Of a stretch of DNA of 53,290 nt, positions 795 through 44,982 are shown piece after piece. The DNA is taken from the UHGV virus genome UHGV-0119950; one strand, written 5' to 3'. Position 1 is the stretch's first letter. Each line of letters opens with the position of its first letter. The notes under the pieces were generated by a model, which made no database searches, had not been told where the DNA came from, and saw nothing but the letters and a program-made list of their open reading frames with translations. This stretch comes from a virus. The position numbers were made by a program, and so were the translations under genes.

Positions 795-2081
795 TTAAAT
801 AACTTTTTTCATACTCCCTCGCCCGTGGGGGCGTCCTGGGGGCAGTGCTGTCGGCATCTGATTGTTCAGCATGTTGACCTGATCCTGGTTCATGTCATCA
901 ATCCACTTGGAGTAAACCTCGTACACCATACGCGCATCTTCATGTCCCATCTGGCTGGCAATGAACGACGGGTTCGCTCCGGCCATCAGCGTCCAGCAGG
1001 CGTATGTGTGGCGCGACTGATATGGATTGCGCTTACGTATACCTGAAAGTTTAGTCCCACGTTTCCAGCCATACGAAATCGAGTCCTTGGAAAAGTAACC
1101 GCCTTTCGTTGATGAGTATGTTGTCGGTGAAAAAACGAAGCGAAGATATTGCTGCTCAGTTTTTCCGATCTCACGATGATGAAACTGAATTTCCTGTTTT
1201 GGACTGTTCCCGGTGATTTCGTATTGCTCCAGCAGAGCATCATGAGCAGGTTGCAGCAACGTTATCGTCCTTATCCCGGCATCTGTTTTAGGGGGTACAA
1301 ATACTCGCTTGTTCGTCAAATTTCTGGATACGTGGATTTCACCTTTTACCAAATCAATATCTTCCCATGCCAGTGCGCATATCTCGCCCGGCCTCATCCC
1401 TGTATGTACCGCAATAATGATGATTAATGCCTGGCTACGGGGAAGGGCGGCTATCAGTGCCTGGTACTCATGAAGTAAAAGTGGGTCGGGATCATTTTTA
1501 GATAACTTGAGTCGCGACACTCCTTCATAAGGAGCATGCAATATAAACTGGCTTCGGTTTGCAAGCTTCAGCATTTCTGATAAAACAGCCATCTGTTTAT
1601 TGACTGTTGAGGGCGCTCGCCCATTTTTGATGCGGTTTGGTATTGAAGGGTTGAAAACTTCCCCGGTCAGGAGTTCTTTGCGGTAATTCAGAATATCTGC
1701 GTGCTGAATATCAACCAGGCGTGTGTTCTCGCCCACTACTCGTTTCAGGGTTTTAACGACTGATGTGATGGATAGTAAAGTGGCTTCAGATACCTCCAGT
1801 GACTTTGTGTCTGTAAAAAAATCACTCAGTTCTTTGAATGTAGAGATCCGTTTTGTGGACGAAAATTTCTTAAGAGCTTTTGATTCCGGGAAACGATCTG
1901 CGTAGTCGAACTTACCGAGTTGTATCTCACTCACAATTGCCGCGCGCAGATTGCCCGCTTTTTTAATGTTGCTACTGTTGACAACCCAACCCTGGAGAAC
2001 TTCGCGGCAACGAATGCCGCGATAGATAAATGTGATCCTGATTTTTCCGTTATGCAGTTCAACACCAGTCGGATATTTCAT
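795..2081 (-). CDS. int: phage integrase, tyrosine recombinase
   Basis: 428 aa; C-terminal catalytic motifs (HTGMRPGE, RHTYACW...GHEDARMVYEVY); followed by xis on same strand; sits at prophage edge. Confidence 0.9.
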   Translation of the reverse strand: MKYPTGVELHNGKIRITFIYRGIRCREVLQGWVVNSSNIKKAGNLRAAIVSEIQLGKFDYADRFPESKALKKFSSTKRISTFKELSDFFTDTKSLEVSEATLLSITSVVKTLKRVVGENTRLVDIQHADILNYRKELLTGEVFNPSIPNRIKNGRAPSTVNKQMAVLSEMLKLANRSQFILHAPYEGVSRLKLSKNDPDPLLLHEYQALIAALPRSQALIIIIAVHTGMRPGEICALAWEDIDLVKGEIHVSRNLTNKRVFVPPKTDAGIRTITLLQPAHDALLEQYEITGNSPKQEIQFHHREIGKTEQQYLRFVFSPTTYSSTKGGYFSKDSISYGWKRGTKLSGIRKRNPYQSRHTYACWTLMAGANPSFIASQMGHEDARMVYEVYSKWIDDMNQDQVNMLNNQMPTALPPGRPHGRGSMKKVI

Positions 2082-6796: not shown

Positions 6797-6920
6797 TATT
6801 TGATCCTCAATTCGTGTAGAATGGAGGCGCCTTAATGGCACCTCGGTTTTACCAGGTGATGTCCGGTGTAACTTTGGTCGGTGCCACCGGACGGAAGGCC
6901 CACCCTGTGTGGGCTTTCGC

Positions 6921-13402: not shown

Positions 13403-13714
13403 ATGGCAAGCAAATCACTGTGGGCAATTGTTGATTTCCTTCGGGAAAACCAGACCATCACGCCGCGACAGGTTCAGAACCTGCTGGGATGTGACTGCAA
13501 GAAATCTCACAACCTGTTGCTTCACCTGACGCGCAAAGCGGTAGTGATCCGTACAGGCGAGCCGCATCACCCGGTCTATTCGCTGTTGCCCGGCGGAGAA
13601 CTGAATATCAAGCGCTTCAAATCGACCGTGAGAAAAAACATGGTCTCATCCGTTTGCCGAAACAGTGCGGCGATGAAGCGAATTTTAATGGTTTGGGGGA
13701 GGGCATCAGCATGA
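13403..13714 (+). CDS. hypothetical protein
   Basis: 103 aa ORF with RBS GGGAGGAG. Confidence 0.4.
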   Translation: MASKSLWAIVDFLRENQTITPRQVQNLLGCDCKKSHNLLLHLTRKAVVIRTGEPHHPVYSLLPGGELNIKRFKSTVRKNMVSSVCRNSAAMKRILMVWGRASA

Positions 13715-14280
13715 AATCAACGGTAGAAACAAAAATCATTGAGTTAGTGAAGTCAGGGCATGAGCTGGCGAAAGAACTGCATTGTGCTGAGTCTGCCGCG
13801 CTGGTGAACTATCTGGCAACGCAGCTTGAAGTGCATTTTGCCCGTAGCAATGCGCTGGCTGCAAAACTGAGCATGATTAACGACCTCATGGATGCCGCTG
13901 AACAGGCCAACAAACTGGCGCAGGAAGCAACGGAAAAACTGGTACAGGAGCGTGACGCTCTGGCTGCGGAACTAAGCGCAGTTGAGTCCATTCACAACGA
14001 TGCAGTATTCATCACTGACGAGCACTATGAGCAATGCCCGCGAGAAGTTCAGAAGATAGTTCGATCGCTGGCTGTGTTGCAGATACCTGCTTACGACTCT
14101 TTCCTGGATGAAGTGCGGGCGCATGACCTTAACGCCTTCATTCAGCATCACAGTGCAGAACTGGATGCGCATATTAAAAACGGTGGTGAGCAGTTCGACG
14201 AAAAATCAGTACGCATCAGAGACATCATCGTCTCAGTTCGCTTGTTCATGGATCAACTTCGCAAAGGCGGTGCAGCATGA
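13711..14280 (+). CDS. hypothetical coiled-coil protein
   Basis: ATG at 13711 with RBS GGGGAGG, overlaps upstream stop (ATGA). Confidence 0.45.
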   Translation: MKSTVETKIIELVKSGHELAKELHCAESAALVNYLATQLEVHFARSNALAAKLSMINDLMDAAEQANKLAQEATEKLVQERDALAAELSAVESIHNDAVFITDEHYEQCPREVQKIVRSLAVLQIPAYDSFLDEVRAHDLNAFIQHHSAELDAHIKNGGEQFDEKSVRIRDIIVSVRLFMDQLRKGGAA

Positions 14281-38359: not shown

Positions 38360-38748
38360 CCCTCACAGAAATTCGTAACGCTGTCATCACCCGAATGACG
38401 GCGCAGACGGCTATTGCCTCTGATGCTGTGGATTATCCCAACGGACCAGTATTTGACCCAAGCGGTCGCGATATCTGGGCTCGCTTTACCAATATTTCCG
38501 GACTGGCCGGCGCGAATGAAATCGGTGCAGGACCCGTCGTTCAACGCACCGGGGTATTGATTATTCAGATCTTCGTCCCTGTTGGTTCTGGCTCTCTGCT
38601 TATCACTCAAACAGCAGACAAACTCCGCGAGCTTTTCGAATTCCAGAATGATGGAAAACTCAGTTATTTCGCCGTTTCCGCTGTTCCTGCTGGTGAAACA
38701 GATGGCTGGTCTCAGCTCAATCTACAAATTCCTTACCGCGCTCTGTAG
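38356..38748 (+). CDS. putative tail terminator / minor tail protein
   Basis: 130 aa immediately upstream of major tail gene. Confidence 0.45.
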   Translation: MTLTEIRNAVITRMTAQTAIASDAVDYPNGPVFDPSGRDIWARFTNISGLAGANEIGAGPVVQRTGVLIIQIFVPVGSGSLLITQTADKLRELFEFQNDGKLSYFAVSAVPAGETDGWSQLNLQIPYRAL

Positions 38749-38774
38749 CGCTTAACTTCGATGGAGGTGACCGC

Positions 38775-39695
38775 ATGTCGAGCGGCGCTAAGGTACTCTC
38801 GGCCTTTATACGGGAAACTACGGTAGGTGTAACTCCGGCAGGAGCGTGGAGTCTGATAAAGCGCTCCGCGTGGGGGGTGAAACCGACCCAAAACACAAAT
38901 GACAATGACGAAATCGGTGGCACCCGCATGGCGCAGGGTATGTCGATGGGCACCGTTGATGTCGGTGGCGATGTGGCGACGAAGTTTCGCTGGGGACAGC
39001 ATGATGCGTTTCTGGCGTCCTGCTTCGGTGCTGACTGGGTTGGCGATAGCCTGACTATGGGTAATGAACGTATCACGTTCTCACTCGCAACGTATGCTTC
39101 CGATGTTGGTATCGCCTCTATCGTTCGCGGCGCGCAGGTAAGCGTGTTCCAGTTGGAGGTTCCTAACGACGGTGATGTTACCGCGACGATCACTTTCGCC
39201 GGGCTGGGCTGGGATTCGAAAGCTGATGACACCAGTTATATCGAAGGAACACCTGCGGATAACTCTGGCGAGCTGCGTTACTCGTTCAAAGAGGTCACGG
39301 CAATCAACCTGAACGGCATCGACGGCGGTGATGGTTTCTGTATCGACACCTTCAACATCCAGTTCGACAACAACGTTCAGACCCAGCGTTGTATCGGCAC
39401 CGGCTCACCATATGCCGGGGCCAATATTCCGACTACGTTCACGCCGTCAGGTTCAATCACATTATCCTGGTCTAAAGCTGCGTGGGAGGTTTGGAGCAAA
39501 ACACTGACCGGGGCGACGGTGCCGTTTAGCTTCACCCTGGCGAACGACGAAGGGCAGTACACTTTCAACTTCCCGAAAGTACAGGTCGCAGGCGACTGGC
39601 CGGATGGGGGCAATACCGACATTATCCAGGTTCAACTCGATATCACTGCGGCAGACGAGTCACCGACCATTACCCGCACAGCTGCGGGCAGTTAA
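38775..39695 (+). CDS. major tail (tube) protein
   Basis: 306 aa between tail completion genes and the chaperone/tape-measure block. Confidence 0.6.
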   Translation: MSSGAKVLSAFIRETTVGVTPAGAWSLIKRSAWGVKPTQNTNDNDEIGGTRMAQGMSMGTVDVGGDVATKFRWGQHDAFLASCFGADWVGDSLTMGNERITFSLATYASDVGIASIVRGAQVSVFQLEVPNDGDVTATITFAGLGWDSKADDTSYIEGTPADNSGELRYSFKEVTAINLNGIDGGDGFCIDTFNIQFDNNVQTQRCIGTGSPYAGANIPTTFTPSGSITLSWSKAAWEVWSKTLTGATVPFSFTLANDEGQYTFNFPKVQVAGDWPDGGNTDIIQVQLDITAADESPTITRTAAGS

Positions 39696-39755
39696 TTTCC
39701 CTTGCCCGTTCCGCTCTGCATGGCGGCGCGGGCTTTTTTCATGCAGGAGTTTCGA

Positions 39756-40223
39756 ATGATTATCCTCAACCCACGAATTGATGTTGGTGGCGAGCGCTGG
39801 TTTACGCCGCTGAAAGATCTCAAACCCATTGAAGGCCTAAAGCTGCTCGTCAGCAGCGTTGATAACGACCAGTATCGCTCGCGTAATGCGCTTATACGCC
39901 GCCACATTGAAAAAATGGATGCCAGTTACCAGGTGGGAACCAGCGAATTTAGCCTGTCTGCGGTCGGGGAAATTGACTCTGCCGATGATCTTCTGATCGA
40001 CAACTGCGCGCGTTACCTGCTGAAAGACTGGAAGGGCGTTGGTGAGCTTGTTGAAGGCGAAGAAGTTCCGATTGAGTACACACCTGAACGCGGCGCTGCA
40101 CTTCTGAAACAGGAACCAGCAATTTACTGGCAAATTCTGGCTGAAGCCGCCAGCATCGCTCAGGGCAAAGAGCAGCAAAAGCAGGAAACCGTAAAAAAGC
40201 CATCGAAGCGCAGAAATGGCTAA
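39756..40223 (+). CDS. tail assembly chaperone (gpG-like)
   Basis: ATG with RBS AGGAG; directly upstream of tape measure gene; slippery A_AAA_AAG near 3' end. Confidence 0.6.
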   Translation: MIILNPRIDVGGERWFTPLKDLKPIEGLKLLVSSVDNDQYRSRNALIRRHIEKMDASYQVGTSEFSLSAVGEIDSADDLLIDNCARYLLKDWKGVGELVEGEEVPIEYTPERGAALLKQEPAIYWQILAEAASIAQGKEQQKQETVKKPSKRRNG

Positions 40224-40543
40224 GCGAGTTCGGCGGGGAGCAGGGCGAAAAGGCAAAGTGGCGAAGGGAGAAATTAAAACTTCCGCCAATCCCTGAGCCA
40301 GAAATCGACGGCGTGACAGGGGAAATCCTCAACGCTTACTCCGTTATTTCCCGCTCCCGGCTGTATGCCGGGATGGCTGGCGCGCCGCTGCCGATATCGC
40401 TTCATGATATTGAGCGCTTTCTTTCTGCACGTCCCGTCCTCATTGATCGTGATGAATTTGACGCGGCGATATTTGCCCTCGATGACGCATGGCGTGAGCA
40501 GTGGGCGCAGGAACAGAAAAAACACGGCAAACAGAAACAATAA
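39756..40543 (+). CDS. putative GT-like frameshift fusion product of the tail assembly chaperone
   Basis: Frame 0 to 40199 then -1 frame to stop at 40543; mirrors lambda G/GT arrangement upstream of tape measure gene. Confidence 0.45.
40193..40199 (+). promoter_or_regulatory. candidate -1 programmed frameshift slippery heptamer A_AAA_AAG
   Basis: AAAAAAG in the zero frame of the chaperone gene 25 nt before its stop; the -1 frame is open from 40145 to 40543. Confidence 0.5.
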
Positions 40544-40582
40544 GCCCGGTATGTCCGGGTATTTTTATGCCCGGAGATCGCT

Positions 40583-43462
40583 ATGTCAGAACAGACATCC
40601 CGCCTCGCCGTCATTATTGACAGCACCGGCGCAGAAAAAAATGCTGAAAGCCTGACCAGCGCCCTTCACGGGCTTACCGAGTGGGGGCAGAAAGCAGCGG
40701 CCAGCGCCGGAAAAGTAACGAAGGCGACCGAAGAAGAATCCGCTGCTTTATCGGAACTACTGGACCGCATTGATCCGGTTAACGCTGCGCTGAACAAACT
40801 GGATAAACAACAGCAACAACTGGCGAAATTTAAGTCGAAAGGCATGCTGGACGATGAGACCTTTGATGTCTATTCGAAAAAAATCGAAGAGGCCCGCAAT
40901 CGTCTCTCTGGGTTTTCAGAGCAATTGAAAAATACTGGCATGTCAGCAAAGCAAACCGCTTTTGCGATGCGCATGCTGCCCGCTCAGATGACCGATATCG
41001 TCGTGGGTCTGTCTACCGGGCAAAGTCCGTTCATGGTGCTGATGCAGCAGGGCGGTCAGTTAAAAGATATGTTCGGCGGCATCGGCCCGGCGATTAAAGG
41101 CGTTAGCTCCTATGTGATGGGCCTGATCAATCCTTTCACGCTGGCGGCTGCTGCGGTCGGCGTGCTGGGTGTGGCGTACTACAAAGGCACGCAGGAACAG
41201 GACGCTTTCAATAAATCACTCATCCTGACGGGTAACCAGGTAGGGAAAACATCGGGTCAACTGGCGGACATTGCCGCGCGTGCTGGTGTAGCGGCGAACT
41301 CTACCACTGGCAAAGCAGCATCGACGTTAAATTTACTGGTGGAATCTGGAAAGGTTGCCGGTGACTCGCTTGAGCGCGTGACCACTGCCGTTGTTAAAAC
41401 GAGTGAGGCCACTGGTATTGCGACCGATAAACTGGTGGACGATTTCAACAAAATTGCCGCCGATCCGGTTGAGGCAATCACTAAACTGAACGATCAGTAT
41501 CACTTCCTTACGCTGGCAACTTACAACCAGATTAAGGCCCTCCAGGATGAAGGGAATCAGCAGGAAGCGGCGCGCGTTGCTACTGATGCTTACGCCACCA
41601 CCATGCAGCAGCGTGCCGCAGATATTCAGGATAACCTCGGTTATCTCGAAAAGGCATGGAACGGACTCACCGGCGCAGCAAAAGGCGCATGGGATGCAAT
41701 GCTGGGCGTTGGGCGCGAGCAGTCTCTTGAACAACGCTTGGCTGATGCGACTAAAAAGGCAAATGATGCGCGCGGCAAAGCCGTGGGTAATATTTTCGGT
41801 GTGCCAGGGTGGCAAACTGAAGCAGCAGCAGCGGCTAATTTTCTGCAAAGTGCTATCGACCTGCAAGGCGACCTTACAAAAGTTGTCGCGGCTGGCAGAG
41901 AAGAGCAGGATAAGGCAATTAAAATACAGCAGGAAGCTGATCGCGTTAACCAGCAGTTCCTGTCGAATGCTGATAAGCGAAACAAGGCGATTCAGCAGCA
42001 GAAGAAATTCCTTGATGCCGGGGCCATCAGTGCAGATCAGTACGCGAAAAATATCGCGCGCATCAATGAAATGTACAAAGACCCTAAATCGCCAACAGCA
42101 GCGAAGGGAAAAGCATATAGCGAAGATGCAGCGACACGACTGCTGGACCAGTTAAACCAGCAGACATCCGCAATGCAGTCCCAGCTTGACGCCAGCGATA
42201 AGCTCACCAGCGCCACTCAGGCGCGAGTGAAGTTTGAACAGCAGATAGCTGACCTCAAATCGAAAACGCAGCTCACCGCCGATCAGAAATCGCTTTTGTC
42301 CCGCTCTGAAGAAATTCTTCAGGCCTACAAACGACAGGAGGCGTTACAAAACTCCGTTAAAACGCTCGACGATTATCGGAAAATGCAGGAGCAGGTTAAA
42401 GCGAAGGATGAGCAGCAGAATGATTTGCTTCGCGAACGGCTTGCGCTGCTGGAAAAAGCAAAAGCCACAGGGAAGCTGGCGCCGGGGGAATACGAGCAAA
42501 CCCGATCTGATATTTACAAAAACACCCCAGCGGAGTTGCCTTCTTCAGTGAAGAGTGTGGTTGGCAACCTGTCACCGACTGGCGGCCAGTTATCCGGCAC
42601 GTTCGGCGGTATGCAACAGCAGTACATGCAACTCGATCAGGCGCAACAGCAGTTACAAACGTGGTTGCAGGCGCAGGAAGCAGCATATGCCCAGGCTGCG
42701 CAAATCACCACGGAAGGCGAAGCGCGCATGACAGCAATCCGCCAGCAGGCGGCGCAAGCCAACCAGGTTATTGAATCCCAGAAAAACGAAATCATCACCA
42801 GTGCGACGCAAACCATGATCGACAGTGGTTTGCAGATTCTGGCGACTGGTTTCGGGGAGCAATCCGGGATTTATAAAGCTGCGTTCGCTGCCAGCAAGGC
42901 ATTCGCTATTGCACAGTCTCTGGTTTCGATCCAGCAGGGGATAGCGATGGCGGCGGCTAACCCGTTCCCGTACAACATCGCTGCGATGGCATCCGTTGCA
43001 GCGGCGACGGCGAGCATCGTTTCTAACATTGCAGCCGTAGCTGATGTTGGTTTTGCTGTCGGTGGTTTTACGGGCCCGGGCGGAAAATACCAGCCCGCCG
43101 GGATAGTGCATAAAGGCGAGTATGTTTTTGACCAGGCTGCAACCAACCGGATCGGCGTCTCGAACCTTGAGGCGCTGCGCAATGGTGGTTCTCTGGATGC
43201 AACGCTGAGCAAGCCCGGTTTCGGTACGGGGGCGCAGAACGTCAATAACAACAGCAATGCTATGACCCTGAACGCCCCCATCAACCAGAACTTCAATATT
43301 CAGCAGGGAGTAAGCCCAGACCAGATGAATCTGTCGCTGGCGCAGACTCAGAAACAGGCTACCAGCGATGCATTAGATCAGGTCGCCAATCAGATCGTGA
43401 AAGGTAACGGGAAGGTGGGTAACGCAATGCGAGGAACGTACACCGGAAGGAGAATGACCTGA
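40583..43462 (+). CDS. tail tape measure protein
   Basis: 959 aa, long helical Q/A-rich protein, Gly-rich C-terminal region; canonical position. Confidence 0.85.
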
Positions 43463-44469: not shown

Positions 44470-44982
44470 GTGAAACGATTTTTGCTGGTTTCTGCCGTAA
44501 TTTTACTGGCCGGATGTTCGGCTAAATACAATACGAACAATATTCAGAGCAACACTGAGCAGTTAGTCAAAGATGCTCCAGTTGCTATTTCTATGCCATC
44601 TGATGGGGTATATGAAACCCGCACATATGCTGGCTCTGGAAATTCGACAGCGACTGCATTAAAAGCTGCTTTTTTGCGACATTCAGATAACGTAGCGATT
44701 TACGCTGATTGTGAAGATGTTACTTGTCTGAAAAATAATCATACAATCCATCATGGATACTACGTTGTTCCTCAGATATTGCATTGGGAGGACAGGGCTA
44801 CTGAGTGGTCAGGAATTCCAGATAAAATTGAAGTGAAAATTACAATTTATAATGCAGAATCCAACAATCGGATTGCCTCAACGATTATTAGCGGGAAAAG
44901 TAAGTGGGCAACATTTGGTGGTGATCATCCGCAAGACTTGTTGCCAGAGCCAGTAAACTCGTACATCTCCAGCCTGTATTAA
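44470..44982 (+). CDS. lipoprotein moron inside the tail module
   Basis: GTG start; signal peptide MKRFLLVSAVILLAGCS with lipobox LAGC; AT-rich; own terminator downstream. Confidence 0.6.
   Translation: MKRFLLVSAVILLAGCSAKYNTNNIQSNTEQLVKDAPVAISMPSDGVYETRTYAGSGNSTATALKAAFLRHSDNVAIYADCEDVTCLKNNHTIHHGYYVVPQILHWEDRATEWSGIPDKIEVKITIYNAESNNRIASTIISGKSKWATFGGDHPQDLLPEPVNSYISSLY

Follow-up and report, generated by a model that had tools for sequence, protein, structure and literature searches.

By means of a programmed -1 ribosomal frameshift, long-tailed phages obtain both a short and a long tail assembly chaperone from a single gene. The closest described counterpart of the locus analyzed here is the G/GT tail assembly chaperone frameshift of phage lambda, which is not known to need a downstream stimulatory structure. 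In the E. coli dnaX gamma/tau frameshift, a strong upstream Shine–Dalgarno (SD) sequence and a downstream hairpin accompany the slippery heptamer, about half of the ribosomes shift, and the shifted product is the shorter one. The lambda system was described by Levin, Hendrix and Casjens (1993) and by Xu, Hendrix and Duda (2004, 2013, 2014), as summarized in PMC5009743, a review that covers both the biology of lambda G and GT, for which it gives a G:GT ratio of approximately 30:1, and the shiftiness of the heptamer A_AAA_AAG with the single tRNA-Lys of Escherichia coli. The tetramer A_AAG is where the one tRNA-Lys of enterobacteria slips from AAG to AAA (PMC5009743; PMC4066793), and in E. coli A_AAA_AAG is most prone to shift when CC follows on its 3' side (PMC5009743). 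Frameshifting measured in E. coli on A_AAA_AAG and on G_GGA_AAG is 0.29% and 0.28%, respectively, when no stimulator is present; it rises to 4.3% and 3.8% with the stimulators of IS911 and to 39% and 43% when the IS3 pseudoknot is supplied, and E. coli genes strongly avoid AAAAAAG in phase (z = -10.1; PMC4066793 Table S3). A_AAA_AAG is used in one published chaperone cluster of enterobacterial prophages, A_AAA_AAG_25; it includes the gene pair ECs1801/ECs1802 of the E. coli O157 Sakai prophage Sp9 (Sharma et al. 2014), whose entry reads 'tail assembly chaperone; [true]' (PMC4066793 Table S4). As at the locus described here, the ECs1801/ECs1802 frameshift was inferred from conservation (PMC4066793), and a candidate downstream structure is reported for the cluster (SD/structure 'N/Y', PMC4066793 Table S4).

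The locus lies in the virus genome UHGV-0119950, a stretch of 53,290 nt that we refer to in its entirety as the window. Positions 40193–40199 are very probably the G/GT-type programmed -1 frameshift site in the gene for the tail assembly chaperone, at which a GT-like fusion protein would be produced. All four of the sequence-level features by which Xu et al. (2004) define a G/GT frameshift are found here: two overlapping ORFs lie between the tube and tape measure genes; the second ORF, read in the -1 frame, overlaps the 3' end of the first; an in-phase slippery sequence that is conserved among relatives is located within the overlap; and the downstream ORF lacks a start of its own and is constrained as coding sequence from the slip site on. 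The initial annotation had proposed a frameshift of this type, and each testable sequence-level prediction of such a frameshift was borne out.

Tail module, protein families and slip site

The gene order is tube, G, overlapping -1 ORF, and tape measure, and it is identical in the relatives (table 1). The initial annotation noted that long-tailed phages conserve such a frameshift just upstream of the tape measure gene, a location borne out here by the PF18906 tube gene immediately on the 5' side of the chaperone gene and the PF06791 gene immediately on its 3' side. TTG 39702 was rejected as the chaperone start and replaced by ATG 39756, based on the AGGAG at 39745–39749 and on the alignment of homologue N-termini; the N-terminus read from ATG 39756, MIILNPRIDVGGERWF, aligns with those of the homologues.

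Table 1. Features of the tail module and of the predicted frameshift; coordinates are positions in the window.
Feature	Coordinates	Strand	Evidence
Tail tube (major tail) protein gene, 306 aa	38775..39695	+	PF18906 Phage_tube_2, E 5.7e-31; phrog_290
Shine–Dalgarno AGGAG of chaperone gene, 6 nt before ATG 39756	39745..39749	+	Sequence; anti-SD duplex -6.9 kcal/mol
G-like tail assembly chaperone gene, 155 aa, YdaY family	39756..40223	+	phrog_313, E 7.3e-45; homologues PF27119
SD-like AGGA, 6 nt before heptamer, possible upstream stimulator	40183..40186	+	Motif in 39/43 unique relatives
Slippery heptamer A_AAA_AAG	40193..40199	+	Phase; conservation in relatives; low entropy
T-like extension, -1 frame, 114 codons + stop	40199..40543	+	phrog_1189, E 1.6e-33; purifying selection
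Predicted GT fusion, 262 aa (39756..40199 joined to 40199..40543)	39756..40543	+	Junction ...QETVKK|AIEAQKW...; phrog_313, phrog_8233
Tape measure protein gene, 959 aa	40583..43462	+	PF06791 TMP_2, E 4.8e-82; PF24622; phrog_24

The 0-frame product has a significant profile match to the phrog_313/PF27119 family, phrog_313 being annotated as 'tail assembly chaperone'. The -1 part matches phrog_1189, a stand-alone family of 86 residues and unknown function. The conceptual fusion of the two parts covers positions 22–254 of the 258 positions of phrog_313 and positions 72–253 of the 271 positions of phrog_8233, which is also annotated as 'tail assembly chaperone' and for which the E-value improves from 0.003 to 2e-8 once the fusion is used as the query. 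Because the fusion fills the profiles of phrog_313 and phrog_8233, both families have fusion-length members. PF27119 (Phage_YdaY), a recent Pfam family, is found on all 89 homologues in a large protein collection; a profile search with G, T, and the fusion against NCBIfam and a Pfam copy lacking PF27119 gave no match. The nearest chromosomal relatives are prophages of Citrobacter species (93–97% identity), and the host element of the frameshift site is a Citrobacter-type prophage. Megablast searches against phages and against E. coli genomes returned no relatives, which were found only by distant-mode and protein searches.

The AlphaFold model is of low confidence (mean pLDDT 61.5) and for that reason is not used for domain-level claims. 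Its best fold matches in BFVD (TM-scores of 0.31–0.41 for the top hits) are, by annotation, tail or tape-measure chaperones and have a length of about 260 aa; they come from Acinetobacter phage Loki (262 aa), the Escherichia phages Seurat (268 aa) and K1H (259 aa), and Caulobacter phage CcrColossus (268 aa). These proteins, matched at E-values of 6e-5 to 2e-1, resemble the fusion in length and in a predicted two-part architecture; they share only 13–22% identity with it, and the TM-scores, from a low-confidence model, are only 0.25–0.41. The matches to fusion-length chaperones lend at most mild support to the fusion reading. A sequence search of the PDB gave a chance match only (E 0.22), and a fold search of the PDB gave nothing under E 0.9.

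The heptamer AAAAAAG is read in the phase A_AAA_AAG, in which AAA and AAG are codons of the 0 frame (P-site AAA and A-site AAG), a phase that suits tandem -1 re-pairing. The chaperone ORF ends with ...CAG GAA ACC GTA AAA AAG CCA TCG AAG CGC AGA AAT GGC TAA, and its stop codon (TAA, 40221–40223) is located seven codons past AAG, which confirms the earlier placement of the motif in frame 0 of the chaperone gene shortly before its stop. A reading-frame check also confirmed that the -1 frame is open from 40145 through the ORF previously listed at 40313–40543, ending at a TAA stop codon at 40541–40543; over the span 40145–40312 it contains no ATG, GTG, or TTG, the first start codon being GTG 40313. 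A -1 slip would add 114 residues, the earlier estimate having been about 115, and would give a product of 262 aa.

We posit that most ribosomes would translate 39756–40223 and release the 155-aa G-like chaperone, and that a minority would move back by one base with tRNA-Lys on AAA in the P site and on AAG in the A site. Both tRNAs could then re-pair with AAA AAA, the next codon would be GCC at 40199–40201, and translation in the -1 frame onward to 40543 would yield a GT-like fusion of 262 aa (...ETVKK-AIEAQKW...). On the model of phage lambda, the G part that both products have in common may bind the tape measure protein, the T extension may recruit the tail tube protein, and a fixed slip frequency may set a high G:GT ratio; on the same model, both products may be needed for tail assembly and be missing from virions.

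The chance expectation for such a heptamer was estimated from a crude set of 51 genes of the window comprising 15,270 codons. This set contains 37 in-phase X_XXW_WWN heptamers (0.0024 per codon), and the three most shift-prone kinds occur only twice, one occurrence being the site at 40193–40199. The number expected in the 26-codon overlap is 0.06 for any X_XXW_WWN heptamer and 0.003 for a strong one. Open stretches of 100 codons or more contain 63 in-phase heptamers, of which that at 40193 is the sole A_AAA_AAG with a long -1 continuation; an in-phase A_AAA_AAC at 13633, followed by a 213-codon -1 continuation, was rejected as an ordinary overlap with the next gene.

Conservation and frame-specific selection among relatives

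We compared the site among 86 loci, composed of six GenBank phages (approximately 70–74% DNA identity) and 80 IMG/VR loci. A_AAA_AAG is in phase and at the same position in 85 of the 86 loci (62–98% protein identity), the sole exception being Erwinia phage Gungnir39; many of these loci are closely akin, so that 85/86 overstates the number of independent observations, and the informative cases are the diverged lineages. The heptamer is also present in eight further genome loci, and Providencia relatives of about 50% identity retain GTA AAA AAG. In one Providencia locus (L096), the frames overlap by just 16 nt and the heptamer is located inside that overlap. The frame difference is -1 in all relatives analyzed save L083 and L095, each of which has an extra indel, and the overlap ranges from 16 to 151 nt. 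The G stop codon falls 3, 21, or 75 nt past the heptamer depending on the lineage, and the position of the heptamer is fixed. L083 was considered as a natural in-frame fusion and rejected, as it contains a normal heptamer and an unrelated indel in a G-run.

The substitutions found in the diverged lineages follow a pattern. Two Pantoea-type loci (L097 and L098) read ACC GTG GGA AAG TCC, that is, G_GGA_AAG at the homologous codons, the result of two coordinated changes (GTA->GTG and AAA->GGA) that replace lysine with glycine and leave the X_XXY_YYZ pattern intact. Pseudomonas phages, in which the T part is 35–38% identical, have CTG GAA AAG CCA TCG, and the Erwinia phage has GTC GCA AAG TAA at the homologous position. 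Because the Pseudomonas and Erwinia relatives keep only the tetramer A_AAG, we consider this tetramer to be the constant core of the whole family. In a Providencia stuartii chromosome, A7 is found in place of A6, and this extra A results in G and T being encoded as one ORF; its junction, ...ETIKK|VIEAQKW..., matches the one predicted here (...ETVKK|AIEAQKW...).

A run of six A is also a sequence in which RNA polymerase might add one A, bringing G and T into one frame and giving an identical protein (…VKKAIEAQ…). The genomic A7 of Providencia stuartii, which encodes the fusion in a single ORF, indicates that one added A suffices, and mass spectrometry of the junction peptide would presumably be blind to whether the mechanism is ribosomal or transcriptional. 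However, productive slippage by bacterial RNA polymerase usually needs about eight to nine or more A or T, and A6 is shorter than this usual run length. No variation is seen at the final G of AAG (entropy 0), even though a change to AAA would be silent in the G frame and make the run longer, and the substitutes found in relatives (G_GGA_AAG, G_GAA_AAG, and GCA_AAG) are non-homopolymeric and yet keep A_AAG for tRNA-Lys. Based on this pattern, we consider transcriptional slippage very improbable as the source of the predicted fusion, and we discuss the site below as one of ribosomal -1 frameshifting.

Mean column entropies by codon position, calculated from 53 unique aligned sequences, reveal where selection changes frame. 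Upstream of the heptamer the entropies in the G frame are 0.31/0.19/0.90, and over 40224–40312, past the G stop codon and before any start codon, they are 0.28/0.27/1.03 in the -1 frame; the variable positions switch to the -1-frame third positions directly after the heptamer. At the synonymous positions of the heptamer (40193, 40196, and 40199) the entropies are 0.14, 0, and 0, and at the adjacent third positions 40187 and 40190 they are 1.1 and 1.0. Nei–Gojobori estimates for the 38 codons after the slip (40199–40312) gave pN of 0.05–0.21 versus pS of 0.65–1.0 in the -1 frame in eight comparisons; in the same comparisons, pN exceeds pS in the other two frames. Purifying selection on the 38 codons that follow the heptamer and precede any start codon is confined to the -1 frame.

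These results bear on the alternative that the downstream ORF is a separate small gene, expressed from GTG 40313, ATG 40373, or a non-canonical start, and that the heptamer is incidental. Public annotations of the relatives do place a separate small CDS of varying length at this position, and phrog_1189 models a stand-alone family of 86 residues. However, neither GTG 40313 nor ATG 40373 is preceded by an SD sequence, the anti-SD pairing of -1.9 kcal/mol being weaker than the mean background of the window, -2.6 kcal/mol; the corresponding values at the true starts are -13.6 (tube), -6.9 (G), and -6.6 kcal/mol (tape measure). No conserved start codon was found in the downstream ORF among the relatives, in which the first start codon of the -1 frame is located anywhere from codon 17 to codon 89. 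The strong -1-frame selection begins at the heptamer, 38 codons before the first start codon, the protein alignment of the T part among relatives begins at residue 1 after the slip, and the heptamer is kept or compensated at synonymous sites. Independent expression of the downstream ORF is therefore highly unlikely, and translation of this region by way of the -1 slip is the reading that we prefer.

The same selection weighs against the suggestion that the heptamer and the open -1 frame are functionless relics of a decaying prophage in which only the 155-aa protein matters. Decay is seen in the family: the Rac prophage remnant of E. coli K-12 has a truncated G, and among the degraded relatives L083 carries its further indel and P0001 a deletion. 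In the window, however, the tail module is complete and the flanking genes are intact, purifying selection on the -1 ORF extends across genera, and the in-phase heptamer is of a kind otherwise avoided in E. coli genes (PMC4066793). We consider a lack of function extremely improbable and continue with the reading that the site directs a programmed frameshift.

Stimulators and expected efficiency

Folding of the RNA downstream of the heptamer gave energies no better than those of shuffled sequences for either 51 or 91 nt (z = 0.95 and 0.11), and a consensus fold of 43 unique relatives gave -0.93 versus -1.70 +/- 1.49 kcal/mol for column shuffles, with no conserved structure. A downstream stimulator like those of dnaX or the IS elements is accordingly rejected, the two single-sequence folds and the consensus fold all being at shuffle level; the stem-loop that occupies a dnaX-type cassette 5–8 nt past the heptamer was not found. 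An Rfam scan at the slip site gave no match. The comparison with dnaX made in the initial annotation thus stands for the shared A_AAA_AAG heptamer and fails for the hairpin, none being predicted downstream by folding.

Upstream of the heptamer, the SD-like motif that is shared by most of the unique relatives is missing in the Providencia and Pseudomonas relatives. The 6-nt spacing of AGGA 40183–40186 falls inside the range of 6–17 nt used by Sharma et al. 2014 (PMC4066793), and the surrounding region is purine-rich coding sequence; a role of this AGGA as an upstream stimulator is possible. Here and in most relatives the heptamer is followed by CC, which is consistent with a role in shifting, and no more than consistent with one because coding in both frames also constrains the two bases.

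Given the lack of a downstream structure, we expect a low, lambda-like efficiency and not the approximately 50% of dnaX. The fusion would probably amount to anywhere from a few tenths of one percent up to a few percent, given published reporter values of 0.3–4%, and the efficiency of the bare heptamer could be as low as approximately 0.3%. It is a possibility that the whole family runs on a minimal stimulator-free A_AAG slip, with the P-site codon (AAA, GGA, GAA, or GCA) and a nearby 0-frame stop codon as the only determinants of its efficiency.

Annotation status and comparison with known systems

Frameshift annotation of the YdaY family is absent from the six GenBank phage relatives and from the two E. 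coli RefSeq regions that we inspected, K-12 ydaY included, and a search of a literature library found no paper linking ydaY to frameshifting. The family is common, with YdaY homologues present in 1071 of 5426 complete E. coli genomes (approximately 20%), where the PGAP name is 'protein YdaY'. Nearly all database proteins of the family are of G length, with 'protein YdaY' or 'hypothetical protein' as their name. The ydaY gene of the K-12 lineage, which lies in the cryptic Rac prophage, ends with ATA AAA AAG CCA TAG and is followed by an unannotated -1 ORF of 106 codons; in this remnant the heptamer and the -1 ORF are intact and G is truncated. We think it unlikely that E. coli K-12 still makes an unannotated YdaY-T fusion by frameshifting.

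The value of the YdaY-family frameshift is mainly for annotation, and it will not surprise specialists. A joined CDS (39756..40199, 40199..40543) would represent the correct 262-aa product and would remove spurious small ORFs. Within the family, a single homologous position also offers a natural set of variant shift sites (A_AAA_AAG, G_GGA_AAG, G_GAA_AAG, and GCA_AAG plus a stop codon) that could calibrate frameshift predictors. Knowledge of how phage tails are built is unchanged by it.

Among described systems, ECs1801/ECs1802 of Sp9 resembles the present locus in that both encode tail chaperones of enterobacterial prophages, with an in-phase A_AAA_AAG that is conserved and a -1 product that is the longer one, and differs from it in belonging to an unrelated family (phrog_344 and phrog_337). 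We asked whether cluster A_AAA_AAG_25 already covers the YdaY family and found that it does not, with BLASTP E-values of 3 and 1 against G and T; the candidate downstream structure of that cluster also has no conserved counterpart in the YdaY relatives. The likeness to dnaX consists in the heptamer A_AAA_AAG and the re-pairing of tRNA-Lys from AAG to AAA (PMC5009743). In contrast to dnaX, the locus described here has no hairpin, its shifted product is the longer one, and its expected efficiency is low.

The mechanism and the gene arrangement are those of the very well known lambda G/GT system, and it is the YdaY-family instance that is new and unannotated in the records inspected. Unlike the lambda proteins, the G and T proteins described here belong to the PF27119/phrog_313 family and share no sequence similarity with lambda G or T that could be detected, the Pfam search having given no match, and the heptamer is A_AAA_AAG here and G_GGA_AAG in lambda, although the lambda heptamer is the exact site of the Pantoea-type members of the family. 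As in lambda, the chaperone is encoded between the major tail and tape measure genes, the shift is in the -1 direction, the slip site is located a few codons before the G stop codon and is followed by an ORF that has no start of its own, and no downstream stimulatory structure was detected.

Variants of the proposed slip site in related loci

In several relatives, the position homologous to the A_AAA_AAG heptamer, at which the tail assembly chaperone gene (G) is proposed to shift into its -1 frame extension (T), has a different sequence. In Erwinia phage Gungnir39 (L005, approximately 1705–1719) this position reads GTC GCA AAG TAA, leaving A_AAG with a stop codon immediately after, and in Pseudomonas phages Aurca01 and phiPSA1 (L101 and L102) it reads CTG GAA AAG CCA, which corresponds to G_GAA_AAG. 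Judged by sequence, these non-canonical sites suggest that slippage in these phages may occur by a single tRNA or with an imperfect P-site.

Two other homologues are degraded variants. In a 240-aa E. coli protein (P0001), a deletion immediately 5' of the KK codons joins G and T in frame; an IMG/VR locus (L083) has a normal heptamer and a 1-nt indel in a G-run further downstream. A homopolymer variant is found in Providencia stuartii (CP114582.1, approximately 1770–1776 of L095), which has A7 in place of A6 (ATAAAAAAAGTCATAG), so that G and T form one in-frame ORF with the junction as predicted. The additional A is either a genuine mutation that produces the fusion alone or a homopolymer sequencing error.

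Hairpins and other elements in the window

Terminator-like hairpins flank G/T (see table), and the region 38700–40700 contains 8 terminator-like sites vs 2.4 +/- 1.7 in shuffles. One possibility is that the flanking hairpins act as partial terminators and so control gene dosage. Some relatives carry additional genes in the gap between T and the tape measure gene.

Another in-phase heptamer, A_AAA_AAC, looks like an ordinary gene overlap; the -1 frame from this site (213 codons) enters the next gene (13654–14280). In E. coli, A_AAA_AAC is a weak heptamer (0.16% without a stimulator).

The isrB sRNA was first described from Salmonella genomic islands and prophages. Given its lipoprotein-type signal and its position as an insertion among tail-tip genes, the 170-aa ORF looks like a moron or a candidate for superinfection exclusion.

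Features of the window and of the Rac prophage cassette
Feature	Sequence	Coordinates	Strand	Remarks
isrB Hfq-binding sRNA (RF01386)	window	6834–6919	+	full-length Rfam match, 59.6 bits, E 3e-8
A_AAA_AAC, in-phase	window	13633–13639	+	close to end of ORF 13403–13714
terminator-like hairpin with T-run	window	39715–39740	+	between tube gene and G
terminator-like hairpin with T-run	window	40544–40568	+	between T stop and tape measure start
170-aa ORF	window	44470–44982	+	N-terminus MKRFLLVSAVILLAGC; lipoprotein-type signal, lipobox cysteine
ydaY/-1 ORF cassette	L104 (E. coli KLY, K-12 lineage, NZ_CP008801.1)	1192–1859		also in L103

The ydaY cassette of the Rac prophage

Among 5426 complete E. coli genomes, 1071 carry homologues of the chaperone (ydaY); in the two E. 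coli regions inspected, these genes have no slippage annotation. In the cryptic Rac prophage (L104), ydaY is an N-terminally truncated homologue of the window chaperone gene and has the 3' end ATA AAA AAG CCA TAG; it is followed by an intact, unannotated -1 ORF of 106 codons, with ynaA, a tape measure remnant, just downstream.
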